From: Gammaproteobacteria bacterium | GTDB lineage: Bacteria > Pseudomonadota > Gammaproteobacteria > S012-40 | Reading direction: 5' to 3' | Assembly (NCBI GenBank): GCA_029884425.1 | Contig: JAOUHV010000009.1 | Location: 1,571-65,570, forward strand | Length of the DNA: 64,000 nucleotides | Shown: positions 39,040 to 59,317 of the stretch, piece after piece | How the letters are laid out: every line of letters begins with the position of its first letter | How positions within the stretch are numbered: the stretch's first letter is position 1 | Notes under the pieces: model-generated | Database searches by the model: none | Seen by the model: only the letters and a program-made list of their open reading frames with translations | What the model was told of the DNA's origin: nothing | Made by a program: the position numbers and the translations under genes

Positions 39040-42000
39040 CTAAGATTCCAGACTACGTTTCAAATTCAGCAATTGTTTCCGTAAACCTTCACTATCAAAT
39101 TCCATCTGGCGGACAACACACAAATTATAGGCGGCGAAATATCTGCTGCCCTTTAGCAAATAGCCGACACCATTGAGCTTTTCTTCAACAGCGACGACAT
39201 CCTTGTCTATTACCCGCTCAATTTCTGCGATCATTTCCCTGACCTTATTCCTATCACCTTCTGCTAACTCAGCAGAATGCTCGGCATCCGACGATCGCTG
39301 CAGACTTTTCAACCCCAAGAGCACCCTTTCCAGCTCCAGATCAAATCGCCCGATCACCTCCGGCAACCCTACCTGATCTGAGCCGATTGCTTTTTCCAGC
39401 ATCGCTGCTGCCACAAACAAACTTGTCATTCCCAAATTACCGGCCACGCCTTTCACGTTATGCACTATACCCTTGGCCTCGCTATATCGCCCACGTTCAA
39501 TAAGCGAGTTTATTTCACTCATAACATTCACATGATGAGCAAAAAACTGCGCTAACAACCGACGATATAACGCTGCATTGTTTGCCACATTGGCCAAACC
39601 AGCAGCGTAATCCATCCCTGGCAACTCAATAATTTCGTCGTCATCGCCGCCATCCGTAACGTTTGGCGCAGCATCATCACCATACGACCGTTCTGGCAAC
39701 CACGCTTCAAGTACCGCATATAATTCAGCCGCAACAATCGGCTTGGTCACATGTTCGCACATACCCGCAGCCAACGATTTATCTTTATCGCCATCCATCG
39801 CATGCGCTGTCATCGCCACAATCGGGATATGGCAATATTCAGACTGATCCAGAATATATCTGGCAGCATCAAGCCCGGAAACCTGGGGCATTTGAATATC
39901 CATCAAAATTAAATCTATTTCGTGTTGACGCAGAGATTCATACGCGACCAGTGCAGAATCCGCCAAAAACACATTCGCCCCCTTGGTTCGCAACAACTCT
40001 TCTGCTACCTGCAGATTTATCGAATTATCATCAACAACCAATATTCTAGAACCTCGAATATTTGGATAGTCTTTTTCTTCACGCACAGGAAACTTGTAAT
40101 CTCTTATCGCTTGCCTTTGAATTTTGGCAACTCCAAATAATGCTAAGTTCAAAGATGCATACAGGGAATTAGGGGTATATGGTTTTACCAGCACACCATT
40201 GGCTCCGGATACCAAGCATTTGTCGCGCAATCGATCATCGCCATATGGGACAGTCACCAATATCTTTGACTCTGCAGATTTCTCACCAGCTCTGGCGCGT
40301 AATTTATTAACAATCGGGATTCCCTGCTTTTCCACGTCAACAACATCAACCAAAATTAAGACATGACTTTCCAAGTCCAAAATATTTAATTCGTTTACAT
40401 CACTGACTACATCGCAACCAACACCAAGTCGCCGAAGTGCTTTGCGCATAATCTCTGCGGAAGACTGCTGATAGCTAATCAGCAACACCCTCTGTCCAGC
40501 CATATGTGCAGTTTTGTCTTCTGACTCATCAGATTGCACGTCGACATCCAGCCTTACTGGAATATCGACTTTAAATATTGAACCTTCTCCCGACTTACTA
40601 TCCACCGAAATCGTTCCGCCCATCAATTCAACCAGGCTTTTACTAATCGCCAGCCCCAACCCCGTCCCTCCAAACCGACGAGATATTGAACCATCAACCT
40701 GAGTAAAACTCTTGAACAATTTCCCAGTTTCCATGTCACTCATACCAATGCCTGTATCACTGACGGAAAACGTCATCCAACACTCCCCATCTGCACATCC
40801 ATGCTGCGATACAGACAGAATCACCTCTCCTTTCTCGGTAAACTTTATCGCATTATTGATAAGATTAATCAGCACCTGTTTGAGCCGGAGAGAGTCAACA
40901 TAAATAACCCTTGGAACATCTGGACTAACATCTAAAAGAAACTCGATCTCTTTGCCTTTCAGCTTAAACACCGACAACATAACCAGCTCATCAAAAAACT
41001 CGTCGAGACTGCATTGATGCTCATCCAACTCCATTTTGGACGCCTCTATTTTTGAGAAATCCAGCACATCATCTAGAAGTGTCAATAAATTCTTTCCTGA
41101 AACCTCAATTTTGTTCAGATAATCCTTGATTCGCGAAGATGCATCCCCCTCTTTGGCTAAATACGCCAGATTAATAACAGCATTTAGCGGCGTTCTTATC
41201 TCATGACTTATATTCGCCAAAAACTCCGACTTTGCCTGCGTTGCTTTTTCAGCGACTTCTTTGGCCCTGATCAATTCAATTTCAACCTGTTTGCGCTCGG
41301 TGATATCCTTCGACACCCCCATCAGCATACTCATCTGACCATCGTTGGACGCCCCAAACAACGCAACAGTTTCCAAATATCTGATTTCACCGGAGGGTCG
41401 AATAATTCGGTGCTCAACACGAAAAGGGGTCTCGTTGAGAATGCTCGATTGCAAGGCATCTGCCAGCAGGTCCGCGTCATTCGGATGTATTCTTTGCATA
41501 ATTTCTTCAAAAGTCACCGTCCACGACTGCCGCTTTAAACCAAAAATACGGTACATCTCATCAGACCACTGCAACTCATTGGTCACAACATTAAGCAACC
41601 AGCTCCCCACATGACCAATTCTCTGCGCTTGCGCCAACTGATACTCACGATTTTTTAATTGCTCTTTTGTATCGCTGACACTATCCAGCATGGAATTTAG
41701 CCCGGCGGAAATCGTGGCAAGTTCATCCTGTCCAGCCAGATCAGATCGAGTTCGCTCTTCGCCATTTTCTATACGCCGCAGCGTTCCCAGCAGCGCCTCC
41801 ACCCTCCTGGTAAAAACATAATGAAAAACAAACATCAACAACACCAATGCCAGCACTGTCCCCATCAAATGTTCCAGCACCTGCTGCAATGCCAGTTTAT
41901 TTGCTCCCTTAAGCTGCTTGGAAATATCTATTTGATGAATGAGCACACCGCACTGTGCTTTCAGTGCAACATTACTCGCCAGTTCGCCGCTACAGACGCG

Positions 42001-42435
42001 AACATATCCCACCATGCCATTTTTATTGCCTTGAACGAGCTCTTCAACGACAGCGATTTGTTGACCGCTCAAAATTGACAAAACAACATTTTCATCAAAG
42101 CGTTGATCAATGACTCTCCATTGACTCCCAACATACGCCAGCCGGGTTGAGGAAATGATGGCGCCACTTGCATCGGTCAAAATACTGATATCGTGACCTT
42201 CTTTCGTTGCCAGCGAAGCGATATACAGTTTTATTGCTCCCAAGTCTCCTGTTCTCAGCAATACTTCGGTTGCTTCCTGTATGGAGCTCAAATTTGATCG
42301 CAAATCATTCAGCGCCGCCTGTCTTATTTGGCTTGAGGCACTTTCAACAGCACGTAGATAATTAAATACGCCCGCAATAATTGCCAGCAACAGCATCGTA
42401 ATGGGAATGAAGTGTTTTATTTTTAACTGATACAC
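39040..42435 (-). CDS. hybrid sensor histidine kinase (periplasmic sensor-HAMP-PAS-HisKA-HATPase-REC-REC-Hpt)
   Basis: 1131 aa. Two TM helices bracket a ~170-aa periplasmic region. Then HAMP, a PAS domain, HisKA (ISHEIRTPLNAVINLAYL), HATPase_c, one degenerate and one intact receiver (ILVVDDNSINL..DLILMDIQMP) and a C-terminal Hpt (HNVKGVAGNLGM). Confidence 0.85.
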   Translation of the reverse strand: MYQLKIKHFIPITMLLLAIIAGVFNYLRAVESASSQIRQAALNDLRSNLSSIQEATEVLLRTGDLGAIKLYIASLATKEGHDISILTDASGAIISSTRLAYVGSQWRVIDQRFDENVVLSILSGQQIAVVEELVQGNKNGMVGYVRVCSGELASNVALKAQCGVLIHQIDISKQLKGANKLALQQVLEHLMGTVLALVLLMFVFHYVFTRRVEALLGTLRRIENGEERTRSDLAGQDELATISAGLNSMLDSVSDTKEQLKNREYQLAQAQRIGHVGSWLLNVVTNELQWSDEMYRIFGLKRQSWTVTFEEIMQRIHPNDADLLADALQSSILNETPFRVEHRIIRPSGEIRYLETVALFGASNDGQMSMLMGVSKDITERKQVEIELIRAKEVAEKATQAKSEFLANISHEIRTPLNAVINLAYLAKEGDASSRIKDYLNKIEVSGKNLLTLLDDVLDFSKIEASKMELDEHQCSLDEFFDELVMLSVFKLKGKEIEFLLDVSPDVPRVIYVDSLRLKQVLINLINNAIKFTEKGEVILSVSQHGCADGECWMTFSVSDTGIGMSDMETGKLFKSFTQVDGSISRRFGGTGLGLAISKSLVELMGGTISVDSKSGEGSIFKVDIPVRLDVDVQSDESEDKTAHMAGQRVLLISYQQSSAEIMRKALRRLGVGCDVVSDVNELNILDLESHVLILVDVVDVEKQGIPIVNKLRARAGEKSAESKILVTVPYGDDRLRDKCLVSGANGVLVKPYTPNSLYASLNLALFGVAKIQRQAIRDYKFPVREEKDYPNIRGSRILVVDDNSINLQVAEELLRTKGANVFLADSALVAYESLRQHEIDLILMDIQMPQVSGLDAARYILDQSEYCHIPIVAMTAHAMDGDKDKSLAAGMCEHVTKPIVAAELYAVLEAWLPERSYGDDAAPNVTDGGDDDEIIELPGMDYAAGLANVANNAALYRRLLAQFFAHHVNVMSEINSLIERGRYSEAKGIVHNVKGVAGNLGMTSLFVAAAMLEKAIGSDQVGLPEVIGRFDLELERVLLGLKSLQRSSDAEHSAELAEGDRNKVREMIAEIERVIDKDVVAVEEKLNGVGYLLKGSRYFAAYNLCVVRQMEFDSEGLRKQLLNLKRSLES

Positions 42436-42442
42436 TGGAAAA

Positions 42443-43387
42443 TCACTTCACGTAGTCGTTATTCAACAACTGCACAGGATCAAAATTTGTCTTTAACAAA
42501 TCATGATTACGCATCGTTTTTGCCAAACCACGCAAACTTTCATACAAATGGCTATCATCACCACTCAACAGCGCATTGGTGCGCTTCCTGTCAGGCAAGA
42601 TCATGCCATCAAAACTGGCCAATACTGCTGCCTCGCCAACATGCATTCGCTCGTTGATAATCCGAGCTGCCCCCACCTTATCGGAGTCAAATGTGGCCAA
42701 TGATAGGTACCATCCATCAACCAAATCTTTCACCACTTCAGGATGTGTCGCTAAATATTTTTCTGTCACCACCAGCACATCGACAATTTCACCCGGAATA
42801 TCTGCCGAAGAAAATATTTGCGCCGCACCATTTCTGATCAGTTTGGTCTTTGCTGGCTCGTATGTCACTACAGCATCAATACCGCCATCGGTAAACACTG
42901 TCTCGTGCATGGTACTACTCAGCCGCACGCTTCTTATATCCGCCAAACTCAATCCATTTATTTCCAGCGCACGTGCCAGCAGATACTGAGCCAACACCGA
43001 GCCCTCGTTCGCCACCCTTTTGCCCTTCAGGTCTTTCACACTACGAATACCTTGGCGCGCGAGGATAACGTCACCGCCTTCCGAAATATTTATCACCAAC
43101 ACGACTTTAATAGGTACGCCAACCTCTTTGATCTTAAGCACCTCATCCATGGTCAGTGTGGCTGCCTGAACAGAGCCATTGATCAAGGCACGCACCGCCC
43201 CCGCCGGGACGGGATACTCCACAAAGGTAATTTCTGAATTATTAAAATGGCCATGGCGTTTGCCCAAAAATAGCGGCTCATAGCCAGGCCACAGAGAGGT
43301 CCCCACTTTCAGCGTTTCCACCGATTCGCCCTCGCAACCGGTCAGCAGCACTGCGAATACAATCACGAGTTTGTACAGTCGCCCCAT
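42443..43387 (-). CDS. periplasmic solute-binding lipoprotein (NMT1/SsuA/TauA-like)
   Basis: 314 aa. Lipobox LLTGC and a type-II periplasmic binding fold resembling sulfonate/nitrate-family binding proteins. First gene of a three-gene minus-strand operon with the two kinases. Confidence 0.7.
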   Translation of the reverse strand: MGRLYKLVIVFAVLLTGCEGESVETLKVGTSLWPGYEPLFLGKRHGHFNNSEITFVEYPVPAGAVRALINGSVQAATLTMDEVLKIKEVGVPIKVVLVINISEGGDVILARQGIRSVKDLKGKRVANEGSVLAQYLLARALEINGLSLADIRSVRLSSTMHETVFTDGGIDAVVTYEPAKTKLIRNGAAQIFSSADIPGEIVDVLVVTEKYLATHPEVVKDLVDGWYLSLATFDSDKVGAARIINERMHVGEAAVLASFDGMILPDRKRTNALLSGDDSHLYESLRGLAKTMRNHDLLKTNFDPVQLLNNDYVK

Positions 43388-43606
43388 GCCCCATCTCCTT
43401 GGTTTTTCCGGTCTTCTCTTCTGTCTTCCATCACTGATCAGCTTCCACCGATTTGCTGCATATATGGCTCCAGAATCCCACTCTCTGGCCCAAACAGTTC
43501 ACAATATCTTAATCTAAGCAAAACACTAGGGTATTTTTTTTCGGCACAATTTTCTGTATAGTAGACGTTTCAGATATTGACCCCATATCCAAAGAGGAAG
43601 TACCCA

Positions 43607-43744
43607 AATGAACGTTGACCAACACTTGAAAGTAGCCCAGTGGCACATCGAGCAGGCTCGCCTGCACGCAACCAAACAACACTCTTGCGGCTGCCCAATT
43701 AGCCCAGAGTACCAGCGCATCATCGACGAAGTCGAGAGCGGTAA
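43607..43744 (+). CDS. small hypothetical protein (45 aa, C-x-C)
   Basis: ATG preceded by AGAGGA at a 9-nt spacing. Encodes MNVDQHLKVAQWHIEQARLHATKQHSCGCPISPEYQRIIDEVESG. Tandem intrinsic terminators follow. It is below the ORF-track size cutoff. Confidence 0.3.
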
Positions 43745-43796
43745 GATTATGGAAGAGCTGGTTTGCAAAACCGGTAAGTAATCGCCTTCCACTGGC

Positions 43797-43829
43797 TGAA
43801 AAAAACCGCTCCAATGAGCGGTTTTTTTT
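43797..43829. terminator. intrinsic terminator (bidirectional)
   Basis: A-run, CCGCTC-caat-GAGCGG, then T8. Confidence 0.7.
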
Positions 43830-43844
43830 CGCCTGAGTTTAGGC

Positions 43845-43877
43845 CAAAAAAAAGCCCGCAACTATGCGGGCTTTTTT
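43845..43877. terminator. intrinsic terminator (bidirectional; terminates the EF-G paralogue on the minus strand)
   Basis: A8-GCCCGCA-acta-TGCGGGC-T6, 20 nt beyond the fusA-like stop at 43897. Confidence 0.75.
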
Positions 43878-43896
43878 CTCAAACGGGAAGCAAACG

Positions 43897-45987
43897 TTAT
43901 TTCTTAGCTGCTGCTTCGCGCTCTTTGGTTTCCTTGATAACGGCTTCAGCCACGTTGTTCGGGCATGGAGAATAACGCGCGAACTCCATGGAGAACTGAC
44001 CACGACCAGAAGTCATGGTACGCAGATCACCGATGTAACCGAACATTTCAGACAGTGGAGCTTCGGCCTTGATACGAACACCCGTAGATGCAGTATCCTG
44101 ACCCAGGATCATGCCGCGACGGCGGTTCAAGTCACCGATAACGTCACCTACGTGATCGTCTGGGGTAAACACGTCAACCTTCATGATCGGCTCCAGCAAC
44201 TGCGGGCCGGCCTTAGGCAAAGACTGGCGGTAAGCAGCGCGGGCAGCGATTTCGTAAGCGATCGCAGAAGAGTCAACCGCGTGGTAGCTACCGTCTGTCA
44301 GAGCAACCTTAACGTCCAAGCAGGGGAAGCCCGCCAGAACACCTTTGACCATGGACTCTCTGAAGCCCTTTTCAACCGCTGGCCAGAATTCGCGAGGTAC
44401 GTTACCACCGGTAACCTTGGACGCAAATTCAAAACCGCTGTTTGGCTCACCTGGCTCAATGGTGTAGTCAATTTTCGCAAACTGACCAGAACCACCGGTT
44501 TGCTTCTTGTGGGTGTAGCTGTCGTTAATTTTCTTGGTGATGGTTTCGCGGTAGGCAACCTGCGGCTTACCAACCACTACGTCTACACCATGGGTACGAC
44601 GCAAAATGTCGACCTTGATGTCCAGATGCAATTCGCCCATGCCCTTGATGATGGTTTCGCCTGAATCCTGGTCAGTTTCAACGCGGAAGGAAGGATCTTC
44701 CTGAACCATCTTGCCAATGGCGATACCCAGTTTCTCGGCAGCGCCCTTGTCTTTCGGAGCGATGGCGATAGAAATAACTGGCTCTGGGAACACCATCGGT
44801 TCCAGAGTCGCAGGTTTCTTTGGATCCGCCAGTGTGTGACCGGTCTGCACGTTCTTCATACCGATGACTGCAACGATGTCACCCGCCTGGGCGCCATCCA
44901 GTTCGATACGGTCGTTGGCCTGCATCTCTACGATACGGCCGATACGCTCGGTCTTGCCTGTAAAGGTATTCAGTACGGTGTCGCCTTTCTTCAGCGTACC
45001 GGAGTAAACACGGATAAAGGTCAGGGCGCCGAAACGGTCGTCCATGATCTTGAACGCCAGTGCGCGGAACGGGTAGGAAGTATCAACGATCGCGTGACCA
45101 CCGGTCTCGTTACCTTCCAAATCAACTTCAGGCTGTGGATCAACTTCTGTCGGGTTAGGCAGGTAATCAACCACGCCATCCAGCACCAGCTGCACGCCTT
45201 TGTTCTTGAACGAAGAACCACAGAACGTCGGGAAGAAGTCCAACTTGATTGTACCCTTACGGATGCAACGCTTCAGGTCTTCGACAGAAGGCTCTTTACC
45301 TTCCAGGTAGGCTTCCATCAGCTCGTCGTCTTGCTCAACCGCAGTTTCGATCAGCTCGGCGCGGTACTGCTTGGCCTTTTCCAGGTACTCAGCAGGAATC
45401 TCTTCAATCTTGTAGGCCATGGGGTCACCGGAGTCATCCCAGATCCATGCTTTCATGGTCAACAGGTCGATAACGCCAGAAAACTGGTCTTCGATACCGA
45501 TAGGCAGAGTCATTACCACAGGACGTGCGCCCAGGATTTTCTTCACCTGACCAACCACTTTGTAGAAGTCTGCGCCGATACGGTCCAGCTTGTTCACGTA
45601 GATGATACGGGCAACGCGTGAATCGTTCGCATAGCGCCAGTTGGTTTCTGACTGAGGCTCTACACCGCCGGAACCACAGAATACACCGATACCACCGTCC
45701 AGAACTTTCAGGGAGCGGTAAACTTCGATAGTGAAGTCAACGTGTCCAGGGGTGTCGATGACGTTGAAACGGTGACCGTTCCAGAAACAGGAAACCGCCG
45801 CCGACTGAATGGTGATACCACGCTCACGTTCCTGGTCCATGAAGTCTGTGGTAGCCGCGCCATCGTGTACTTCACCCAGCTTATGGATTTTACCGGTCAG
45901 CTTCAGGATACGCTCGGTGGTCGTGGTTTTACCCGCGTCTACGTGAGCAAAAATACCAATGTTTCTGTATTTGCTTAGATCAGTCAT
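43897..45987 (-). CDS. elongation factor G paralogue (EF-G2-like translational GTPase)
   Basis: 696 aa. G1-G4 motifs ([18 protein letters not shown]), EF-G domains II-V. Clearly EF-G-like ([45 protein letters not shown]) but diverged from canonical FusA. Confidence 0.85.
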
Positions 45988-48298: not shown

Positions 48299-50176
48299 AT
48301 GCGCCCGCTGATCGCTGTGAAACTTAGACCCGCTCTGGTTGGCATCCTGCTCGCCAGCCCGGCCCTAGCTCAGGACCCACAATACAGCATTACCGATCTG
48401 GGCCCCATCGGTTATCTGACGGACGAATACAACACCGCCATCAACCAGACACTGCAAGTCAACGACAACGGCCTGGTGGTCGGCTCCACCTGGGCTGCCG
48501 ACAGCACCCAGCGCGCAGTGGTGTTTGAGGCTGGCAGCAGCCAGTTCAGCCAACTTCCCAGCACCAGCAGTGCCGCAGCCAACGGCGTGAACAATGCCGG
48601 CGTTGCCGTAGGCTGGTACAAGGACAGCTCGCAGACTATCGTCGCCTGCCAGTGGAAAAAAATCAGTGGCAGCTGGACTCTGCAACCGCTGCCTCTGCTA
48701 TCAGGCTATTCCAGCAGCAAAGCCTGGGCGATTAATGACAACGGCGTCATCGTCGGCAGTGTCAACGACGGCAGCAACGATTACGCGGCTTACTGGCCCA
48801 ATGCCAGTGCCAATCCCATTTTGATCGCCGGTGGCTTTGTTGGTGCCGCCTACGGCATCAACAACCAGGGCAAGATCAGCGGCATCAGCGGAAAGGTTGG
48901 CAACTACAGCCAGAGCAACGGCTTTGTCTGGCAACCTGGCAACGGCAGCCCGGCCTTACTGCCTCATCTGGTCAACAGCTTAGGCACCGGCACCACCAAC
49001 TGGGGTGGCATCGACATTAACGAATCCGGCAATGTGGTGGGCGGCAGCGGCACCTGGTTCGCCTGGAGCAACTGGAGCCAGTCTGTCAGCCAAATCACCC
49101 ACCCCTACGTGTGGAACAGCGACAGCGGCATTACCGACATCAACCCCGGCAGCCCGCAAACTGCCTGGGCCAACAGCATTAACGACGCTGGTTATGTCGT
49201 CGGCGAAATCGTGGCTGCCGCCGCCTGGAACATCAATCAGGTATGGCCAGTACAGCCGCCCTCACCCAATGACGCAGTTCTTGTTCGCGATGCCTTCGTC
49301 TACCGCCAGGAACTGGATGCCAACGATGTCGCCGTCTGGCGCGAATACAAACTGTGGAATCAGATTCCATTAGCCGAACAACCGCTTTGGCATTTTTACA
49401 AAGCCAGCGACAACAGCAACATCGGTCACATCGTCGGCCTGGCGGGCAAAAAGGACGCCGATGGCAAATACCAGTGGCATGGCTATCTGCTCACCCCGGC
49501 GGTGGCCGATTTGGCCCTCACCCAGAGCATTGGTCTGGTCGGCGGCAATGCCAAAGCCACCACCCGTAGCTTGACATTCAGTAATCTGGAAACAGACACC
49601 CCGGTGCAAATGAGCCTCACCGTCAACAACCGTGGACCACTGACCGCCCATCAGGTGACGCTCACTGCCAAATTACCCAAAGGCTTGAGCGTTGCAGCGA
49701 TCAACGGCAACAATTGCAGCACCAGCAGCGATGCCTCGCAAAACACCGTACTGCAATGCGTACTGCCCAGCCTGGCAGTGCATCAATCCGCGCAATTTAG
49801 CGCCGAATTCAGTGCCAACGCCGCAGGTGAATATCTGGTCGACACCAGCGTCAGCTCGGACGAACTGGACAGCCTGAACAATGCCGACAACCGTCGCCAA
49901 CATCTCATTACTGTCACAGCGAAAAGCATCAGCATCGTACCTCAACCGAATCCCTTGCCCGAGCCGCTGCCAGTCAATCCGCCGATAGACAATCCGCCAG
50001 CCGCGGACGATCCCACCCCACCGCCGGCTGAAAACAACAGCCCAACGGGTGATGCCAGCACCGACGCACCCGTCCAAAACGACGATGGCGACAACGCCTC
50101 GGCCTTGTCGCCCTGGCAACTGCTCATGCTGCTGCCGCTGCTGGGACGCATCCGCCGCCGCTGGCGCTCGGCATGA
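48299..50176 (+). CDS. secreted HAF-repeat / DUF11-repeat protein with C-terminal hydrophobic-basic sorting-signal-like tail
   Basis: 625 aa. Signal peptide (LASPALA) and multiple (I/V)NDxGxVVG HAF-type repeats. A DUF11-like domain (LTVNNRGPLTAHQVTLTAKLPKGL) and a Pro-rich linker follow. C-terminus ..ALSPWQLLMLLPLLGRIRRRWRSA. Confidence 0.6.
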   Translation: MRPLIAVKLRPALVGILLASPALAQDPQYSITDLGPIGYLTDEYNTAINQTLQVNDNGLVVGSTWAADSTQRAVVFEAGSSQFSQLPSTSSAAANGVNNAGVAVGWYKDSSQTIVACQWKKISGSWTLQPLPLLSGYSSSKAWAINDNGVIVGSVNDGSNDYAAYWPNASANPILIAGGFVGAAYGINNQGKISGISGKVGNYSQSNGFVWQPGNGSPALLPHLVNSLGTGTTNWGGIDINESGNVVGGSGTWFAWSNWSQSVSQITHPYVWNSDSGITDINPGSPQTAWANSINDAGYVVGEIVAAAAWNINQVWPVQPPSPNDAVLVRDAFVYRQELDANDVAVWREYKLWNQIPLAEQPLWHFYKASDNSNIGHIVGLAGKKDADGKYQWHGYLLTPAVADLALTQSIGLVGGNAKATTRSLTFSNLETDTPVQMSLTVNNRGPLTAHQVTLTAKLPKGLSVAAINGNNCSTSSDASQNTVLQCVLPSLAVHQSAQFSAEFSANAAGEYLVDTSVSSDELDSLNNADNRRQHLITVTAKSISIVPQPNPLPEPLPVNPPIDNPPAADDPTPPPAENNSPTGDASTDAPVQNDDGDNASALSPWQLLMLLPLLGRIRRRWRSA

Positions 50177-50778
50177 GCCAGCGCAAAACCGTCGATATTC
50201 TGCGTCAGCAGGTCGGCTACGACGGTTTTTTTAAGCTATCGAAGTTCCGCCTGCGCCACTCGCTGTTCAACGGCAGCATGAGCCGCGAAATGAGTCGCGA
50301 ATTGTTTGAGCGCGGCCATGCCGTGGCCATGCTGCCCTACGACCCACAGCGCGATGAACTGGTACTGCTGGAGCAATTTCGCATTGGCGCACTGCACGAC
50401 CCCAACGGTCCGTGGTTAACCGAAATCGTCGCTGGCATGATCAAGGATGACGAACGCGCCGAAGACGTTGCCCGCCGCGAAGCCCTGGAAGAAGCCGGCT
50501 GCGAGATCAATTCCCTCGTTCACATTCTCAACTATTACGTCAGTCCCGGTGGCACGTCTGAAACCATCGCGCTGTACTGCGGCTTGATCGACAGCAGTTT
50601 GGTCAAGGAAGGCATTTACGGACTGGACGAAGAAAACGAAGACATTCGCGTTTTCAAAGTCAGCTACGATCAGGCGATCCACTGGTTGCGCAGTGGCAAA
50701 ATCAATTCCGCCGCACCCATCATCGCTCTGCAGTGGCTGATGATGAATCGCGAACAACTGCGGCAACAATCAGGCTAG
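50173..50778 (+). CDS. nudF: ADP-ribose pyrophosphatase (Nudix)
   Basis: 201 aa, collinear with E. coli NudF (YRGFF.L..YRFRH.LFNG.MS.E..RE.FERGHA ... Nudix box EDVARREALEEAG ... DENEDIRV). The start overlaps the upstream stop (ATGA). Confidence 0.85.
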   Translation: MSQRKTVDILRQQVGYDGFFKLSKFRLRHSLFNGSMSREMSRELFERGHAVAMLPYDPQRDELVLLEQFRIGALHDPNGPWLTEIVAGMIKDDERAEDVARREALEEAGCEINSLVHILNYYVSPGGTSETIALYCGLIDSSLVKEGIYGLDEENEDIRVFKVSYDQAIHWLRSGKINSAAPIIALQWLMMNREQLRQQSG

Positions 50779-51878
50779 AGACGCTGCAAAATTTGCGCGC
50801 GCGAAATCAGGCCCAATAATTTGCTGTGCTCATCAACCACCGCCACATATTCGCCCTCGTATTGGGCAAATTGTGGAATCAGCTCGGACAACAACATGTT
50901 CGGCGACACATGCAGCAGTTCAGAGCGCATTAACTGCCCCACCACTTCGTGTTTGTCCGAATCATGGCCCGGTGTACGTTGCAACAGCCGATGCAGTTTT
51001 TCCACAAACCGTTCAGGCTGCCCCACCTCCACCGCATGCATCATTTCGCGCAGCGTTAACATACCCATGACGTGATCAAAAGCATCGACCACAGGCAGCT
51101 CAACCAATCGATGCTCGCGCATCATGTGCCAGGCTTTATCCAGCTCTGTGCCATATTGCACCGTCAGCACATCAACCTGCATCACATCACTGCAACGCAC
51201 CGCGCCCAATTGGCGAATGCGTGAATGCATGCGTGCCTGATAATAAATTTTTTGTAAATCGGATTCGGACACATCAACAAAACCATCCATGTCGCGCAGC
51301 GCCTCGGTCAAATCCTCGGCGGAAAAATCCTGCGGTTTGCGCTGTTCACTCGCCAGCAACTCCGTGCTTTGTGGATAACGCCGACCTGGCAGCAAATTAT
51401 TCAGCAGCAACGCCGCCAGCAGAATCAGCAATACGTTCAGCAACACCGGCGTGATTAGAAATTTGTATCCCAACGCGTGAATATGTTCATCACCCACGAC
51501 AGCCACCAACGCCGCTGCTCCGCCCGGCGGATGCAAACAGCGCAGTTGCTGCATCAGCGCAATCGACACCGCCACCGCCAATGCCGCAGCCAAAGCCCAG
51601 TTGCCTATCCACTGGACGCAGGTCACTCCAACCGCTACCGACACCATGTGTCCGGCAAATACTGCCCAAGGATGCGAAAAACGACTGCCAGGCACGGCAA
51701 ACAACAACACGGCGGATGCCCCCATTGAGGCAATCATCAACGGCACCGCTGCACCGGACAAAAAGTGATGACTAATCCCGGCCACAAACAAGATGCTGAG
51801 CAAGGCCGCCACAAACGCAAACAGCCGTTCGCTAGCACTGGTTACATCGGCCTGGGGAATGAATCGCTGGTACCACAT
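50775..51878 (-). CDS. HPP-family membrane protein with tandem C-terminal CBS domains
   Basis: 367 aa. 4-5 TM helices with an LHPPGGA (HPP) motif, then two CBS domains. Confidence 0.75.
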   Translation of the reverse strand: MWYQRFIPQADVTSASERLFAFVAALLSILFVAGISHHFLSGAAVPLMIASMGASAVLLFAVPGSRFSHPWAVFAGHMVSVAVGVTCVQWIGNWALAAALAVAVSIALMQQLRCLHPPGGAAALVAVVGDEHIHALGYKFLITPVLLNVLLILLAALLLNNLLPGRRYPQSTELLASEQRKPQDFSAEDLTEALRDMDGFVDVSESDLQKIYYQARMHSRIRQLGAVRCSDVMQVDVLTVQYGTELDKAWHMMREHRLVELPVVDAFDHVMGMLTLREMMHAVEVGQPERFVEKLHRLLQRTPGHDSDKHEVVGQLMRSELLHVSPNMLLSELIPQFAQYEGEYVAVVDEHSKLLGLISRAQILQRL

Positions 51879-52372: not shown

Positions 52373-55357
52373 ATGAGTGAATCCCAGCTTGGCCACGGGG
52401 GCATACAGATCGACCTGACGAACCCCGCCAGTAAAACCCACGACTCCCCCAGCCGCGTATTTCCCATCGCCAACGACAATCCAAAGCAGGTCAAAACACT
52501 GCGCGATTTGTCACTGACCGACATCAGCATCAATGATTTCCAAACCGTCAAATGGTGGCGCGAGCGGCTTTTTCTCGACGAAGGAACACCGGAAATTTGC
52601 GATGAATTGCCGCGCTTGCTCACCGAATTCATGCGCGACCCTGCCAATGATGAACTACCGCCTTACCAAAGACGCGCCGAAGCACTGAACTATATTTTCA
52701 GCAAGAAAACACCACTGGTGCGCAAAACAGATTTATTACCCGGTCAAACCACAACCAGTTTTGTTGGCCCAGTAATTTATGCTGACACCATTGGCTATTG
52801 CATCTGGCCAGAATTAAATACCGTCACTCATCGTGCGCAAAATCCGTTCAAAATAAAACCTGAAGTTGCAGAACGCTTAAACAAAGAAATTTTTCCCTAC
52901 TGGTTGCAACGCCTGCCTGTGCAGGAAGTCGCCCGTTATCGCGCCTATGACACCCAACAATATCGCAACGATGGCCGCGACACCGTGGACGGTGGCCATT
53001 ATCACGGCATTCCATCCATCGACCCGCAATTGAAAAAAGCTGCCGGTGAAACACCGACCTGTCAGGCATTGATGGAACGCGTGTCCTTTTTCCTGTCAGA
53101 CAAAGCCACCTGCGTTTCGCACACCGTGCCGGATTTTGCGCGCGTGCTCAAATACGGTCTGAATGGTTTAATTCAACAAGCCAATAACGATATCGCCAAT
53201 TCCGCACTCAGTGATTCGCAACAACAGTTTTTAAAAGGCGTCGTCTGCGTGTTTGAGGGCGCAAAAAACTATGCGCAACATTTGGCGCAAGCTGCCGCCG
53301 AGGCAGGCAATACCGAACTGAGCGCTATCTGCCAGCGCGTACCGGCACAACCTGCACGCACGCTGCATGAAGCCATCACCAGCATCTGGATTTGCTATCA
53401 CCTGTTGCTACAGGAAAATACCAATTTTGGTTTGTCCATTGGTCGTCTTGATCAACTGCTCAATCCGTATTATCTCAGCGATTGGTCACAACTGGGTTCC
53501 GGCCAGGAACGCGACGCCTATACCAAGCACGCCGTAGAGTTGATGTGTCATTTCTTCCTTCGTTGTTCCGATCACGTTCCGCTATCCACCGAAGGTTCTG
53601 AAACCTTGTTCGCCGGCAGCGGTTCCAATCAGGCGCTGACGGTCGGTGGCACACAGGTGGTCGATGGCAAAGTTGTCGATGCCGTTAACGACATGACCTA
53701 CATCATTCTCAAAGCCACGGAATTGCTGGGCATTCGCGACCCGAATGTTCATGCCCGTTATCACAAAGATGTGCATCATCGCGACGCCAGTGGCAATCCT
53801 CTGCCTGCCGAAGTCCACGATGGTTATCTCAAGCGAATTTGTCAGGTCAATATTCTCACTCGCGCCACACCGGCGCTGCATGGCGATGCCGCCGTGGTTG
53901 ATGCCATGGCCAGCTATTACGCGGCTCATGATGGCGTGAGCGCCGATGAGGCACTGGCTGACGCCCACGATTACGCCTCCATCGGCTGCATTGAGCAAAA
54001 TTCAGCAGGTAAACATTACGGCAACACCGGCTCGACCTTGATGGTTTTACCTGCTGTGCTGGAGCTGGCGATGTTTGGCGGCAAACATCGCAGCGACGGC
54101 ATCGCTGCCAATGATCCGAATTTATTTTACGGCGCGAGCGCCTACACCACACCACCGCTCAGCCGAATGAAAACCATGGAAGAGTTCATCGCTGCTTTTC
54201 GTATCCAGCTGGATGAAATGGCCAGACATGCAGTGCAATGCAACAACTATCTGGGGCGCGCCATGGAAGATGTTCGGCCTTCGCCATTTTTGTCTGGCTT
54301 GTTTGTTGGACCAAGTAATTTACCTGGCGGACAAGGTGCCAAGTTCCGCGACGTTGCCGCTGGTGGGGCAAAATACAATTCCGCCGGGGTTGCCATTATC
54401 GGTCTGGCCGATGTCATCGACTCGTTCTGCATTTTTGATCAATTAGTCTTTGGTAAAAAAATCTCAGTCAGCGAATTGCTGTCCGCAATGAACAGCAACT
54501 TTGGTCAGCAAGCGCCCGCCTCAGCAAAAGAAAGCAGCTGGATTCGACGCATTATCCAGCGCATCGTTGCCTGGTTGCGTTTGTCTGACGAACTGCAAAC
54601 GCTGCCTACGCTCAGCGATGAGCGCATCGCACAAATCAACCAGCTGCTGCGCCGCGCACCCAAATATGGCGCCGGCATTGAACAAACACCGGGCAGTGTT
54701 TACGACAATCATCTTGCGGTGAAATACACGCACCTGCTGACCGAAATGATTCATGATACGTTCTACAAATATCGCACCCATCGCGGTGGCCGCTATCTGG
54801 TCGGCTATTGGAGCATGACCAACCATGCCGGCTTTGGCATGCTAACCAAAGCCACGCCCAATGGCCGCCGCGGTGGTCAATCGTTTGCCAGCGGCATCAC
54901 CCCTTGCCCCAACATTGTCAAAGCCAACGGTGATCCGGTAATGATTTTCGATCACATGCTGTCGGTGGCTGAAGTCCGTCCGCAGACGGTGCAAAATGGC
55001 TACACCTACAACCTCAGTCTGACCACTCGCGATGCTGAACATTTTGACGCCGACACCGAACTGTTTTCGCGCTACATGAAAGCCTTCATGGATCATGACG
55101 GTGTATTGGTGCAGCTGTGCGTATCCTCCATTGAGGATTTGCGCGCAGCCCACAAGGCAGCCAATGACGCCGAAGCCATCGGTGCCACGACTGAAGCCAA
55201 ACAGGCGCTGACACCGTTCAAGGATTTAATGATTCGCGTTGCAGGATACTCTGCCTATTTCGTCACTCTCAGCCCGCAAATGCGGCAGGAGATTATCGAT
55301 CGGGCGAACTTCTCACTCGACACAGGCAAAGAAACACACACCGCTTTCAGCGTTTAG
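52373..55357 (+). CDS. glycyl radical enzyme, PFL2 (glycerol dehydratase/CutC-like) class, unknown substrate
   Basis: About 994 aa. C-terminal glycyl-radical loop IRVAGYSAYFVTLSPQMRQEIIDR (Gly codon 55244-55246). Active-site loop SIGCIEQ (Cys 53987-53989, Glu two residues later), which is the C-x-E arrangement of PFL2-class enzymes rather than the PflB Cys-Cys pair. N-terminal region homologous to PFL2 N-termini (RRAEALNYIFSKKTPLVRKTDLLPGQTT) preceded by a ~100-aa extension. Start at MSESQLGHGG; the ORF track begins 33 codons upstream without a Shine-Dalgarno. Confidence 0.85.
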   Translation: MSESQLGHGGIQIDLTNPASKTHDSPSRVFPIANDNPKQVKTLRDLSLTDISINDFQTVKWWRERLFLDEGTPEICDELPRLLTEFMRDPANDELPPYQRRAEALNYIFSKKTPLVRKTDLLPGQTTTSFVGPVIYADTIGYCIWPELNTVTHRAQNPFKIKPEVAERLNKEIFPYWLQRLPVQEVARYRAYDTQQYRNDGRDTVDGGHYHGIPSIDPQLKKAAGETPTCQALMERVSFFLSDKATCVSHTVPDFARVLKYGLNGLIQQANNDIANSALSDSQQQFLKGVVCVFEGAKNYAQHLAQAAAEAGNTELSAICQRVPAQPARTLHEAITSIWICYHLLLQENTNFGLSIGRLDQLLNPYYLSDWSQLGSGQERDAYTKHAVELMCHFFLRCSDHVPLSTEGSETLFAGSGSNQALTVGGTQVVDGKVVDAVNDMTYIILKATELLGIRDPNVHARYHKDVHHRDASGNPLPAEVHDGYLKRICQVNILTRATPALHGDAAVVDAMASYYAAHDGVSADEALADAHDYASIGCIEQNSAGKHYGNTGSTLMVLPAVLELAMFGGKHRSDGIAANDPNLFYGASAYTTPPLSRMKTMEEFIAAFRIQLDEMARHAVQCNNYLGRAMEDVRPSPFLSGLFVGPSNLPGGQGAKFRDVAAGGAKYNSAGVAIIGLADVIDSFCIFDQLVFGKKISVSELLSAMNSNFGQQAPASAKESSWIRRIIQRIVAWLRLSDELQTLPTLSDERIAQINQLLRRAPKYGAGIEQTPGSVYDNHLAVKYTHLLTEMIHDTFYKYRTHRGGRYLVGYWSMTNHAGFGMLTKATPNGRRGGQSFASGITPCPNIVKANGDPVMIFDHMLSVAEVRPQTVQNGYTYNLSLTTRDAEHFDADTELFSRYMKAFMDHDGVLVQLCVSSIEDLRAAHKAANDAEAIGATTEAKQALTPFKDLMIRVAGYSAYFVTLSPQMRQEIIDRANFSLDTGKETHTAFSV

Positions 55358-55366
55358 GAGAATGAT

Positions 55367-56014
55367 ATGCACGCAGGCTTTCCCAATTACAGTCAACATC
55401 TTCATTCGGTATTAACGCTAGGGCGAAATCACGAAAAAATCCCGCAGATTGTCGAAAAACTGGGCGGCCCCATTGTCGCCAAGGGAGTCGCGGCACTGGT
55501 GGAATTTGGTTTTGTGTTCGTCATGCGCGATGCACTGCTAGATCCGGCGCATCGCAATCGTGCCACGCGTTTTTTTGATGACAATTTCGTCATACGCGAC
55601 CCTTACGTCAAGGGTGGCCAGCGCTACTACAACGGCAAATTTTTGCTGCGCACGAAAAAGCCCGGCGACAACATGAATGTTCACATTGAGTTTTGCAAAA
55701 ACCCTGACGCCTTGTTTTGTGATACGCCATTTGGCAAAACCATCAACCCACTGGAAATTGTCACCACCACAACCCTGACAGAAAATCAGGCCCTGGCCAT
55801 TGAACGCAATCCAGACAAAGTCGATTTGGTCATCGCTTTTAAAGACCTGGCCAGCATCATTAATCTGATTGGCAGGGACGAAGTCGATGTCGTCGGTTTG
55901 TTGCTGGAAAATATGGTACAGCTTACCGGCAATGTAGGTCACCTTTTCAAACTTGGCGCAATCGCATGCGAAGTTGAGCGTTTCATTGGCGTCGCCAATC
56001 AGCCGACTCACTGA
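55367..56014 (+). CDS. hypothetical protein co-operonic with the GRE (215 aa)
   Basis: 9 nt after the GRE stop; its own stop overlaps the activase start (ATGA). No Cys-rich Fe-S motif and no recognisable domain. Confidence 0.5.
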   Translation: MHAGFPNYSQHLHSVLTLGRNHEKIPQIVEKLGGPIVAKGVAALVEFGFVFVMRDALLDPAHRNRATRFFDDNFVIRDPYVKGGQRYYNGKFLLRTKKPGDNMNVHIEFCKNPDALFCDTPFGKTINPLEIVTTTTLTENQALAIERNPDKVDLVIAFKDLASIINLIGRDEVDVVGLLLENMVQLTGNVGHLFKLGAIACEVERFIGVANQPTH

Positions 56015-56904
56015 TGAGCATGCAAACCCAGGCATGGATTTTCGACATCAAACGCGATTGCAGCGAGGACGGACCTGGCATACGCACCACAGTTTTTTTC
56101 AAAGGCTGCCCTCTGCAGTGTCAGTGGTGCCAAAACCCGGAAGGTCTGCCCACACCCCATCATTTTCATCCTATCACCGAGCAATGTGCTGAACTGGACA
56201 ATGGCGAGCTGATTGATCTGCAAACGCTGCTGCATCGCGTGCTGATCGACAAACATTTCTTCATCTCCAGCGGCGGCGGGGTAACGGTCTCTGGCGGCGA
56301 AGCAACCCTACAACATGACTTCCTTCACCATTTTTTAAAACAACTCAAAGCCGAAGGCATACACACCTGCCTGGAAACCAGTGGATTCTTCAACTATCGC
56401 CGTTTCAGTGAACAGTTATTGCCCTATCTGGATCTGATTTATTTTGACGTAAAAATTTTCGACGACACCCTCAGCCGCCAATTCACCAAGCAAGGCAGCT
56501 CCCTTATTTTGCAGAATCTGAAAAACCTCAGCCAACAATCCAAGGTCACCGTCATCCCACGAATTCCATTAATCCCTGGTATCACCACCCGCAAAGACAA
56601 TCTTGTTCGCATTGCACAACACCTGCGCCAATTACATTTTTCCACCGCTGTTTTGCTGCCATACAACCCCCTATGGCAGGACAAGCTGGCCAAACTCAAT
56701 ATGCACAGCGAATATCAGCGAAAAACTTTCATGACTGCGGATGAACTACAGGAGTGCCAGGATATTTTCATTTCTGCACTTAACCAAACTTCACAAGCAA
56801 CCAACGATTATCATGGCGTACAAGGAGATCACAATGAACAATCCTTACCTGAGCAGCCACAATTTCCCCTGCCAAAACGAACAAGAGAGGCAACAACTCA
56901 ATAA
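56014..56904 (+). CDS. glycyl-radical enzyme activating enzyme (radical SAM, PflA-type)
   Basis: 296 aa. GIRTTVFFKGCPLQCQWCQNPE (CX3CX2C radical-SAM cluster), SGGGVTVSGGEATLQ and EGIHTCLETSGF motifs near-identical in pattern to E. coli PflA. No CX2CX2CX3C ferredoxin-like insert. Confidence 0.85.
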   Translation: MSMQTQAWIFDIKRDCSEDGPGIRTTVFFKGCPLQCQWCQNPEGLPTPHHFHPITEQCAELDNGELIDLQTLLHRVLIDKHFFISSGGGVTVSGGEATLQHDFLHHFLKQLKAEGIHTCLETSGFFNYRRFSEQLLPYLDLIYFDVKIFDDTLSRQFTKQGSSLILQNLKNLSQQSKVTVIPRIPLIPGITTRKDNLVRIAQHLRQLHFSTAVLLPYNPLWQDKLAKLNMHSEYQRKTFMTADELQECQDIFISALNQTSQATNDYHGVQGDHNEQSLPEQPQFPLPKRTREATTQ

Positions 56905-59317
56905 CAAGCTGCAAGACATTCTCGCGCGTGATGGCCAGGAAAATCCGTTTGCCATGTTCGCCAACTATCAGCGCATCCTTGCTGACAACAACAAAAAAGA
57001 TCAATGGCCCGCCGTTCACAACACCTTGCGCACCTTATTTGAATGCGGCTCTGCTGTTGCCATCGACGGCCCAATGATAGGCATTCCAGTTTCCATTCGT
57101 GACAGCGATTTTTTCCGCGAGCTTGCTCAACAATTCGGCCAACAACGTTCCGCCATCGCCGGACTGGAAGTCATGGCCAGCGCATGGAATGCCACGTTTG
57201 CTGATACGGGCTTGTGGATGGGAAAAACCTTTGAGCCATTGTCTCGCGAACAGGTCCGGGGAATTTGTAATGATGACTCCGTCACCATGGAGACTTATGA
57301 CGCCAGCAAAACACGCATAGGTCGAAATTTTTTCCGCCCACCGGGCAATCCCAATTTAGTTCAAGGCATCGGCCTTCCCGGCCTGCACCGACTATGGCGA
57401 CTGCAGGATAGACCGACCTCCCCCGGCGACCCACGATTCATGGGTGAGATCTTGCCCAAGAATCTGGAAAAAGAGAAAACCATACCTTACACCGAAACCG
57501 GCGGTATTTTTTTGGCTGACATGGGCCAATCAGTTGTGCCGGAAATGCGCAATAAAAAAGTCTATCAGCTCAATTATCGCTGGGATAGCTTGCAGCCCAC
57601 CTACCCGATGACATGTTTGATCGATGAGCTGGTACAAGTCGCCGACGGCATTTATCTAGGTCAACTGGTTTTTGCCACACAACACTTCAACGTAGGCCAG
57701 CTCGACATCTCGTTTTTGGAGCACCACACACCACTCACCCTTGGCGAAAAATATCAACCGCGCAAGCCCGCCAGCTGGTGGCAACGTTTCCTTGATTTTT
57801 TGCTACGTCGCAACAGTGGAAAATTTGTTGATTACGGCTACCAGAACAACGGCTTTTTCTTGATGATGGACCCGGCCTATGCCTCGCAGGTTTATGCCGA
57901 CGATGCGTTTCCACAACTGCGTCCACGTCCCGGTGAAGCAGGCTTCCGCGAGCTGGGCTACGACAAACTCGCCAACGTTGAGGATACGCCTCGCGCACTG
58001 GATGAATGGAAAGACGGCTGGAAGAAGCATGCGGATTTGCGCGCAAAATTCACCACCATGACTCTGGAAACATCGCCCGTGGCCGGCGACAACGCTATCG
58101 TATCGACCCTGCTTCAACCTGACGAAAGCATTTTGCAGATGCTGCAGCGCATCAGCCAGCGCATCTCATCACAAACATCCCACTTCGACAGACTTGAGGA
58201 ATTTGAAAGCCTCAATCGCTTGTTCCGTTGCGGCATCGCACCCACGGTTGTCAACGGCGTATTTCAAAGTGCGTCAGAGAAAAACTATCACGTCCGACTC
58301 AACAGCCAAAACAGTTACGACTGGTATGGTGAGCGCAACCGCATTCAGGGGTTTGACTATTATCACGGCGCCACGCTCAGTTTGCATGGTGGCTTTGGCG
58401 ATAATCTGCGGACGGGGGCATTTGATGACCAGTGGCTGCTGCCCAACACGCTCGCGGCCATGTTGCGCGAGGACAAACTCTATGATCCCAATGTGCTCGA
58501 TATGGTATGGCGCGCCATAGGCAAATATATTTTCCCTTGGGGCGGAAAATCCTTTGAGAAAATTCCGCCGCGCACCCTCAGTATGCTGCTGGACGAAAGT
58601 GATGATCTTGCACAGCGCTATCCCGAACGTGTCGAGCAATTAAAAAATCATCTGGCCAGCGCGCCGCATTATCAACTGACCAAATTTAATGCCCAGCACC
58701 ATTGGGAACCTGGAAAGTATGCTGCGCACTTGTCACATGGCAGCTGGGACAATGGCATGACCGAGCAGGACAAAGCATTCTGGCAGGATCAGGCAGATAA
58801 TCATTGGGTACAGGGATATAACTTGCAGGACAAACGCATTCTCAGCGCCGATGCATTCATGCGCATCGTTGACATGAACTACCGCGTTCCCGATCCGTTG
58901 CTGCAAGCCTACGCAGCGCAAGGACCGTCACCATTCGTACGTCAGGGTTACATGTTCCTGGGCGTTGCCGATCAAACCTCCATTTTGCCAATGAATCATG
59001 GCAACGAGCAGCGCAAGCAAGTGTTCCAGTTCCACTATCGCTATCCCATGATTGGCGGCCCGGCACCGATTGGTTTTTGTCTGGATGAGTTAGTGCAACT
59101 TGCTGACGGTTTGTTTTTGGGGCAGCTGATTTATGCCACACGCTTAACTGAACCGTTCCACTCCTCCGTGCCAGCAGAAAAATATGCCTATCAGTTGTTC
59201 GGTTATTTTCTGCTGCTGGACAACGACTGGGAATCACATCGCCAGGCCATTGGTCTGGATGTGCTGGACGCCAAGCCACAAACGGTTGTCGAACAACTGG
59301 TGGATCTGGTCAGCTAA
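56834..59317 (+). CDS. large uncharacterised protein with internal tandem duplication, last gene of the GRE operon
   Basis: About 827 aa from the ATG at 56834 (AAGGAG Shine-Dalgarno 6 nt upstream), which overlaps the activase 3' end by 71 nt. Alternative starts are 56741 and 56954. Two homologous halves (YQLNYRWDSLQPTYPMTCLIDELVQVADGIYLGQLVFAT..GYQNNGFFLMMD vs FQFHYRYPMIGGPAPIGFCLDELVQLADGLFLGQLIYAT..AYQLFGYFLLLD). No known domain recognised. Confidence 0.55.
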   Translation: MNNPYLSSHNFPCQNEQERQQLNNKLQDILARDGQENPFAMFANYQRILADNNKKDQWPAVHNTLRTLFECGSAVAIDGPMIGIPVSIRDSDFFRELAQQFGQQRSAIAGLEVMASAWNATFADTGLWMGKTFEPLSREQVRGICNDDSVTMETYDASKTRIGRNFFRPPGNPNLVQGIGLPGLHRLWRLQDRPTSPGDPRFMGEILPKNLEKEKTIPYTETGGIFLADMGQSVVPEMRNKKVYQLNYRWDSLQPTYPMTCLIDELVQVADGIYLGQLVFATQHFNVGQLDISFLEHHTPLTLGEKYQPRKPASWWQRFLDFLLRRNSGKFVDYGYQNNGFFLMMDPAYASQVYADDAFPQLRPRPGEAGFRELGYDKLANVEDTPRALDEWKDGWKKHADLRAKFTTMTLETSPVAGDNAIVSTLLQPDESILQMLQRISQRISSQTSHFDRLEEFESLNRLFRCGIAPTVVNGVFQSASEKNYHVRLNSQNSYDWYGERNRIQGFDYYHGATLSLHGGFGDNLRTGAFDDQWLLPNTLAAMLREDKLYDPNVLDMVWRAIGKYIFPWGGKSFEKIPPRTLSMLLDESDDLAQRYPERVEQLKNHLASAPHYQLTKFNAQHHWEPGKYAAHLSHGSWDNGMTEQDKAFWQDQADNHWVQGYNLQDKRILSADAFMRIVDMNYRVPDPLLQAYAAQGPSPFVRQGYMFLGVADQTSILPMNHGNEQRKQVFQFHYRYPMIGGPAPIGFCLDELVQLADGLFLGQLIYATRLTEPFHSSVPAEKYAYQLFGYFLLLDNDWESHRQAIGLDVLDAKPQTVVEQLVDLVS

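Follow-up and report, generated by a model that had tools for sequence, protein, structure and literature searches.

The vast majority of the activases identified for glycyl radical enzymes (GREs) contain an auxiliary ferredoxin-like domain, whose function is described as unknown (PMC13450708, PMC10239695 and PMC11528403, including a review from 2026). Among the described activating enzymes (AEs), CutD, HypD-AE, 4-Hpad-AE, BssD/IbsAE and YbiY belong to this ferredoxin-domain type, while PflA from Escherichia coli (PFL-AE; structures 3C8F and 3CB8; model TIGR02493) has only a radical S-adenosylmethionine (SAM) domain and holds one CX3CX2C cluster. E. coli PflC, the activase of PflD, is of the PFL2-type and comprises a reduced insert, with four cysteines that form one cluster motif and not two. 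Here we describe an AE encoded in a stretch of 64,000 nucleotides from a Gammaproteobacteria bacterium (contig JAOUHV010000009.1; the whole stretch is called the window in the following), whose gene lies two genes downstream of a GRE gene (Table 1). An earlier note on this DNA had described it as a PflA-type activase in a mix-and-match pairing with a PFL2-class enzyme. The analysis points to a different origin: the AE is very probably the GRE's cognate activase, which belongs to the PFLE/PFLC lineage, has lost its insert by an in-frame deletion and would now work in a PflA-like manner.

The translated gene showed 100% identity with the NCBI entry 'MAG: radical SAM protein [Gammaproteobacteria bacterium]', and its open reading frame (ORF) is intact. 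The same holds true for the motifs read from the sequence, namely DGPGIR (residues 19-24), CX3CX2C (32-39) and GGE (94-96). In Pfam, matches were obtained with Radical_SAM (PF04055, 9e-15) and Fer4_12 (PF13353, 9e-13) only, the latter describing the N-terminal region of single-cluster radical-SAM enzymes. The Fer4 models PF00037, PF12837, PF12838 and PF13237, which homologs of about 300 aa have on record, were not found in the AE. Besides the triad C32/C36/C39, whose columns are 100% conserved across 36 short and 31 long orthologs and PflA, only C16, C58, C119 and C248 are present, resulting in seven cysteines altogether. A search of the AE for CX2-5CX2-4CX3C gave no hit, and the two Cys-rich motifs with eight cysteines that make up a ferredoxin-like insert are absent. 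Both the count of cysteine motifs and the Pfam check therefore confirm the observation of the earlier note that the enzyme has only the canonical CX3CX2C and lacks the auxiliary domain. The linker from the third radical-SAM cysteine to the GGG[VI]T motif measures 47 aa and contains one Cys.

With regard to its architecture, the AE indeed resembles PflA. Its motifs DGPGIR, GGE, DTNG-like and LLPY can be aligned with those of PflA across residues 17-227, which is also the range of the match to the PflA structure 3c8f (2.7e-29), and the linker is of similar length (33 aa in PflA). However, the model scores assign the enzyme to the other lineage. TIGR02494 (PFLE_PFLC) was matched with 207.6 bits, above its curated cut-off of 174.35, whereas the PflA equivalog TIGR02493 reached 152.8 bits against a cut-off of 231.75 and PRK11145 (PflA) 124.1 against 375. 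The match to TIGR02494 is split into two stretches, of which one aligns residues 64-253 with profile positions 101-290 and the other is N-terminal, while profile positions of about 45-100, corresponding to the ferredoxin insert, are skipped. The top equivalog-level matches were the HypD, HpsH, HPAD and PflC activases. The identity in the core amounts to 28.5% with PflA, 33-35% with PflC and YbiY, and 50-56% with insert-bearing orthologs, so that the closest homologs show the ferredoxin-domain architecture together with the same genomic partner. Compared to such activases, the AE lacks the entire insert of eight cysteines and hence both auxiliary [4Fe-4S] clusters; PflC has retained one cluster motif and the AE none. 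Of the features that characterize PflA, the AE shares only the radical-SAM domain, since it falls below the model cut-off, does not group with PflA in the tree and has no pyruvate formate-lyase (PFL) as partner; the GRE scored 36.5 bits with the PFL model TIGR01255 (cut-off 994.2). By contrast, its score, its CX3CX2C and GGE motifs and a co-evolving GRE neighbour are those of a PFLE_PFLC member. Based on the scores, the core identity and the congruence of the trees described below, the AE is regarded as the cognate activase with a deletion and not as a recruited PflA. Its short architecture would accordingly reflect a secondary loss.

The earlier note had considered such a pairing unusual. The absence of the insert is real and unusual, but in the closest relatives it proved to be routine, which in part is the finding that the note itself had named as counter-evidence. 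A comparative scan with one genome per species yielded 80 loci with the same GRE family, in hosts including Nitrosomonas, Nitrospira/Nitrospirota, Methylomonas, Crenothrix, Gallionella, Sulfuricella and Sedimenticola as well as Chromatiaceae, Ectothiorhodospiraceae, Magnetococcales, anammox Planctomycetota and Desulfobacterales. Among the 67 complete activases at these loci, 36 are short, i.e. without insert, and 31 are long. Similarly, of the best 120 database homologs of the AE, 54 are short forms of 246-296 aa without a ferredoxin motif (median of 6 Cys) and 66 are long forms of 295-329 aa with two Cys-rich motifs (median of 14 Cys); for most of the latter, Fer4 Pfam domains are on record. 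Either kind is paired on the same contigs with orthologous GREs of 65-75% identity. The insert of the long orthologs comprises 45-55 aa with eight conserved cysteines, and according to the alignment it is exactly this insert that the short forms lack. The lengths of the linker reflect the same division: while full-length forms show 91-96 aa with 8-10 Cys, the short forms show 34-51 aa with 0-2 Cys, PflA having no Cys in its linker and PflC 63 aa with 4 Cys. The Crenothrix/Methylobacter group lies in between with 79-84 aa and 5-6 Cys; in these loci (L017, L068 and L078) the second Cys motif is gone, representing an intermediate insert decay. In Gallionella (L042, L046, L047 and L049) mere short remnants of the insert with 1-2 Cys are left.

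The AE itself carries what looks like a scar of the deletion. C58 (codon at 56185-56187) aligns with the first ferredoxin-motif cysteine of the long orthologs, in alignment column 73, which holds a cysteine in 100% of the long and in 6% of the short forms. Since this is the first of the eight conserved insert cysteines, C58 can be explained as a relic. The insert of about 45-55 aa would fall between C58 and A59. The flanks of the deletion in the short forms ('WCQNPEG...' and '...PVGYWISLDELLYRV') match the long orthologs and not PflA. At the DNA level, the event can be observed in the activase genes of L003 (short) and L077 (long), which differ by a clean in-frame deletion of 147 nt (49 codons) between nearly identical flanks with a handful of mismatches, at a synonymous divergence (dS) of 0.24. 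This sister pair from a Sulfuricella metagenome-assembled genome (MAG) and a Proteobacteria MAG (L003:10990-11130 versus L077:10715-11010) constitutes an ideal natural experimental pair.

For the phylogeny of the activases, a neighbour-joining tree was calculated from 248 columns with the insert masked and 100 bootstraps. All family members form a single clade (79%), which lies nearer to PflC/YbiY, while PflA groups with YjjW. Within this clade, short and long forms are intermingled: the short L003 pairs with the long L077 (100%), the short L056 and L007 stand together with the long L010 (98%), and the Gallionella clade (97%) includes the long L038. A large Nitrosomonas/Sedimenticola group comprises short forms throughout, with a bootstrap of only 38% at its node, and the AE of the window is found with the long Chromatiaceae forms L079 and L010 (68%). 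The tree of the GREs showed the same groups, and its basal branches (Desulfobacterales, Magnetococcales, anammox, Planctomycetota/Thermodesulfobacteriota) are all accompanied by long AEs. Since the two trees agree and the pairwise distances of GRE and AE correlate (r = 0.76), enzyme and activase are concluded to have co-evolved. Short forms occur in at least five separate places of the tree, and their breakpoints differ between the groups. The ancestral AE accordingly carried the insert, which was lost at least five times within this orthologous GRE-AE family.

The shortened genes are maintained by purifying selection. The ratio of non-synonymous to synonymous substitutions (dN/dS) was 0.05-0.2 for pairs of short forms and 0.10-0.15 for pairs of long forms. 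Isolates in culture also carry short forms (Nitrosomonas aestuarii Nm36 as well as the N. oligotropha strains Nm45 and Nm75), which are therefore not assembly artefacts. Altogether, at least five independent losses combined with purifying selection on the shortened genes indicate that the auxiliary-cluster domain would be dispensable in this family. That the domain is evolutionarily labile is also evident from PflC with its naturally reduced insert. The pflC gene of E. coli is present in our data set as L084:259-1137, and the full-length insert of YbiY comprises six Cys; the inserts of PflC (four Cys) and YbiY thus show that a reduction of the domain is not confined to the GRE-AE family of the window.

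Based on these findings, the following course of the activation can be proposed. The insert of the ancestral activase, about 45-55 residues long, would have bound two auxiliary [4Fe-4S] clusters, and its in-frame deletion would have left C58 as the single relic cysteine. The sole remaining [4Fe-4S] cluster on C32/C36/C39 would bind SAM, as in PflA, and could receive its electron directly from a flavodoxin or ferredoxin of the cell. Cleavage of SAM by this cluster would generate a 5'-deoxyadenosyl radical, which would take a hydrogen from the GRE at G958, located in the RVAGYSA loop. Like PflA, the AE therefore probably needs a single cluster. A dispensable auxiliary domain would be consistent with the literature on IbsAE, which installed a persistent radical on its GRE without reconstituted auxiliary clusters (PMC10239695).

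A number of observations weigh against this assignment. The placement of the AE among the long forms has a bootstrap of 68%, and the split between the family with PflC/YbiY on the one side and PflA/YjjW on the other reaches 57% only. Both trees were calculated by neighbour-joining, the reference and outgroup activases originate from E. coli alone, and the majority of the loci are MAGs. Moreover, we infer the activity of the family members with one cluster. For 4-Hpad-AE, the removal of the domain is cited as giving a short-lived glycyl radical only (Selvaraj 2014, as cited in PMC13450708 and PMC10239695). Due to this result, the domain may not be dispensable in every activase, and the family of the window may have some form of compensation. 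Finally, the C-terminal tail of about 40 aa is an unusual feature of the AE, which is missing from the other short homologs (246-286 aa).

Among the other possible explanations, the one proposed by the earlier note can now be regarded as extremely improbable. According to it, an activase of the PflA lineage was recruited beside a PFL2-like enzyme, where it took the place of the ferredoxin-bearing original. The radical-SAM-only architecture, PflA as the best match among solved structures and the 152.8 bits still reached with TIGR02493 would fit such a replacement. However, a recruited PflA should neither fall below the cut-off of its own model while passing TIGR02494, nor be most similar in its core to insert-bearing orthologs and least similar to PflA. 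The congruence of the AE and GRE trees, the placement of the AE in the family clade, the relic of the first-motif cysteine and the deletion observed at the DNA level in the sister pair are likewise in conflict with a mix-and-match origin. A further explanation would be that the insert-less AE is a decaying or inactive gene and that the system is non-functional in mostly aerobic lineages. Several hosts such as Nitrosomonas and Gallionella are known aerobes, although glycyl radicals are oxygen-sensitive, and the odd C-terminal tail overlapping the next gene could be taken as a sign of decay. Nonetheless, this is very unlikely, since dN/dS in the short clades is the same as in the long forms, the catalytic motifs as well as the Gly and Cys loops of the partner are intact and invariant, and dozens of independent genomes, isolates among them, show uninterrupted ORFs. 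The idea of short AEs as pseudogenes was rejected on the basis of dN/dS.

Somewhat less improbable, though still unlikely, is that a separate ferredoxin-like protein or a conserved partner provides the auxiliary function in trans, so that the domain would have been relocated and not lost. The role of the domain may be electron delivery (PMC13450708), and two conserved proteins without an assigned role belong to the module. These two proteins (p215 and p858, see below), however, accompany both types of AE and contain few conserved cysteines. A clustering of all ORFs within 9 kb at the 80 loci revealed no enrichment of a ferredoxin-like or Cys-rich gene next to the short AEs; this search covered the flank of about 9 kb, and a more distant gene could have the function. 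In the window, the sole other CX2CX2CX3CP motif belongs to an FAD/Fe-S oxidase of 1281 aa at a distance of 40 kb. Compared to these alternatives, a cognate activase that lost its insert by deletion explains the data best.

Table 1. Positions of the activase, its motifs and the neighbouring genes in the window
Feature	Position	Strand	Evidence
Glycyl radical enzyme (GRE), 994 aa, divergent PFL-like family (~990 aa)	52373..55357	+	PF02901 (6e-104)
p215, conserved 215-aa protein; N-terminal helices, then predicted SCP2-like alpha/beta domain	55367..56014	+	AlphaFold2 (AF2), Foldseek
GRE-activating radical-SAM enzyme (AE), 296 aa, no ferredoxin-like insert	56014..56904	+	TIGR02494, PF04055, PF13353
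Codons C32-P-L-Q-C36-Q-W-C39 (radical-SAM [4Fe-4S]), sole cluster-binding motif	56107..56130	+	column conservation
Linker with putative deletion scar, residues 40-86	56131..56271	+	alignment, Cys columns, linker lengths
C-terminal tail of the AE, ~40 aa (residues ~256-296)	56779..56904	+	homolog lengths
p858, conserved ~830-aa protein, internal repeat (~210-295, ~710-817)	56834..59317	+	conservation, AF2

The GRE partner of the AE showed 100% identity with the 994-aa database entry P0121, and at least 120 homologs were found at 65-75% identity, with Methylomonas, Nitrosomonas, Nitrospiria and Mariprofundus among the named sources. Its Gly loop RVAGYSAYF (G958) and its Cys loop IGCIEQ (C539/E541) are invariant in 22 members of the GRE family, irrespective of the AE type that accompanies them. 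The label 'PFL2-class' used by the earlier note holds for the PFL-like fold and the two loops, but it is only approximate, since the score with TIGR01774 (PFL2/glycerol dehydratase) was 333.7 bits against a cut-off of 678.2. PF01228 was matched barely at its cut-off (22.3 versus 22.2), and the equivalog models for CutC, HpsG, HpfG, HypD, IAD, HPAD and the PflD type all remained far under their cut-offs. The top match among PDB sequences was PFL2 of A. fulgidus (2f3o, 5e-58). With PFL2-type GREs (2F3O, glycerol dehydratase 1R8W and CutC) the enzyme shares the fold, the RVxG[YF] Gly loop and GC[IV]E with the general-base Glu. In contrast to them, it is about 200 aa longer due to an N-terminal extension and insertions, and none of the known small subunits of GREs resembles its SCP2-like or ~830-aa companions. 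The GRE is thus a distinct, divergent and uncharacterised lineage, as the earlier note had suspected. A diol-dehydratase reading was considered and rejected: while the Cys-x-Glu pair is kept, a Gly occupies the position aligned with what we take to be D447 of glycerol dehydratase. An FNR box (TTGAT-N4-ATCAA with up to two mismatches) was not found upstream of the GRE, and the count of such boxes across the window was not above chance. Divergently oriented just upstream of the GRE lies a gene for a membrane protein of the HPP family that contains two CBS domains (50775-51878, minus strand); it is not conserved at related loci.

The genes of GRE and AE are not directly adjacent but separated by p215. 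The order GRE-p215-AE was observed in nearly all of the 80 loci, the exceptions being practically confined to loci that are too short to show it; a p215 homolog follows the GRE in 73 of them, and most of the remaining loci end before that point. AGGAG precedes the ATG of p215, and its TGA overlaps the start codon of the AE (cTGATGa), so that p215 appears to be translationally coupled to GRE and AE. No match to p215 was obtained in Pfam, NCBIfam or the PDB sequences, even with a profile, and 20 members of the family gave none in Pfam at E <= 10. Among 120 listed of its 286 homologs, every source name is 'hypothetical' or 'uncharacterized'. The AF2 model, of moderate confidence, showed a predicted local distance difference test (pLDDT) of 78.5 and a predicted TM-score (pTM) of 0.75, and nearly all of its Foldseek matches in the PDB were folds of sterol carrier protein 2 (SCP2), with probabilities of 0.8-1.0 and TMt of 0.45-0.64 at marginal E-values of 1e-3 to 1e-1. 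They include UbiJ-SCP2 (6h6p; probability of 1.0, TMt of 0.64), C-terminal domains of alkylsulfatases and sterol carrier protein 2. The predicted domain of p215 at residues of about 75-207 would correspond to these SCP2-fold lipid carriers, whereas the SCP2 Pfam models do not match the sequence and p215 has an additional N-terminal helical region of about 70 aa. According to a review, the known small subunits of GREs resemble high-potential iron-sulfur proteins (HiPIPs) or rubredoxins; an SCP2-like GRE partner would therefore be new.

The next gene, p858, overlaps the last 71 nt of the AE tail in a different frame. Since AAGGAG-N7-ATG is found at 56821-56836, the true start of p858 is probably the ATG at 56834. 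Homologs of p858 are present in about 50 of the 80 loci, mostly directly upstream of the GRE, and only 95 representatives were found among 1.84 billion proteins. Nothing credible was obtained in Pfam and NCBIfam, where only scattered matches of single members at E-values of 0.014-0.2 occurred; a profile hidden Markov model gave no match to PDB sequences, and distant relatives have no significant Pfam domain. The AF2 model (pLDDT of 81.3, pTM of 0.62) showed nothing significant in a Foldseek comparison with the PDB. As for conserved cysteines, p215 has one that is invariant; in p858, one is invariant and a second nearly so.

Downstream of the AE, 37 loci encode a DUF6765 protein that shows a weak Zn-phospholipase-C signature (e.g. 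L003:11706-12758 and L060:13338-14393), while neither a copy nor a remnant of it was found in the window. The AE tail, which overlaps p858 where other loci have DUF6765, may be the scar of a rearrangement. In Methylomonas loci (M. methanica, L009:14555-15484), an alpha/beta-hydrolase resembling lipases and palmitoyl-thioesterases lies between DUF6765 and the p858 homolog. The SCP2-like p215, DUF6765, the hydrolase and other features of the module together suggest a hydrophobic or lipid-derived substrate of the GRE. Going further, we only tentatively consider that the module, consisting of the ~990-aa GRE, the SCP2-like protein, the AE, the ~830-aa protein and often the DUF6765 protein, might be a new glycyl-radical system, which would carry out a reaction not described so far, with a lipid-like or otherwise hydrophobic substrate, under oxygen shortage in chemolithoautotrophs and methanotrophs that are regarded as aerobic (Nitrosomonas, Nitrospira, Methylomonas, Gallionella). 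In that case, p215 could be a new kind of accessory subunit that delivers the substrate, and the repeated shedding of the two auxiliary clusters an adaptation to oxygen exposure or to iron economy. A search of the available literature on this GRE family in nitrifiers and methanotrophs, on DUF6765 and on GREs combined with SCP2 returned nothing relevant.

The family represents a natural near-isogenic series, in which the domain of the activase is complete, half-decayed or missing, while the orthologous GREs have an identical Gly loop. Matched AE pairs, one of them differing essentially by 49 codons, could be used to test the role of the domain directly by comparing the yield and the persistence of the radical, the preferred reductant, the tolerance to oxygen and the solubility. 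GRE research is said to be held up mainly by insolubility of the activase and reconstitution of its clusters, and the short activases may be easier to produce. In addition, the uncharacterised GRE system with its two conserved partners that match no protein-family model occurs widely among nitrifiers, methanotrophs and oxidisers of iron and sulfur, and it points to an anaerobic chemistry not yet known from these organisms, which are considered aerobic.

Apart from this module, some other features of the window were observed. The 1281-aa protein mentioned above (12824-16669, minus strand) combines DUF3683, FAD-oxidase, 4Fe-4S dicluster and CCG domains and carries the only other ferredoxin-type Cys motif. 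The G+C content decreases to 0.445-0.49 across 38001-44000 compared to 0.52-0.59 elsewhere, and a 1131-aa hybrid histidine kinase is encoded inside this region (39040-42435, minus strand). A 625-aa protein with DUF3466/DUF11 repeats (48299-50176, plus strand) ends in a hydrophobic, Arg-rich C-terminus (…LLMLLPLLGRIRRRWRSA), which by its resemblance is a candidate for a sorting signal of the PEP-CTERM type.

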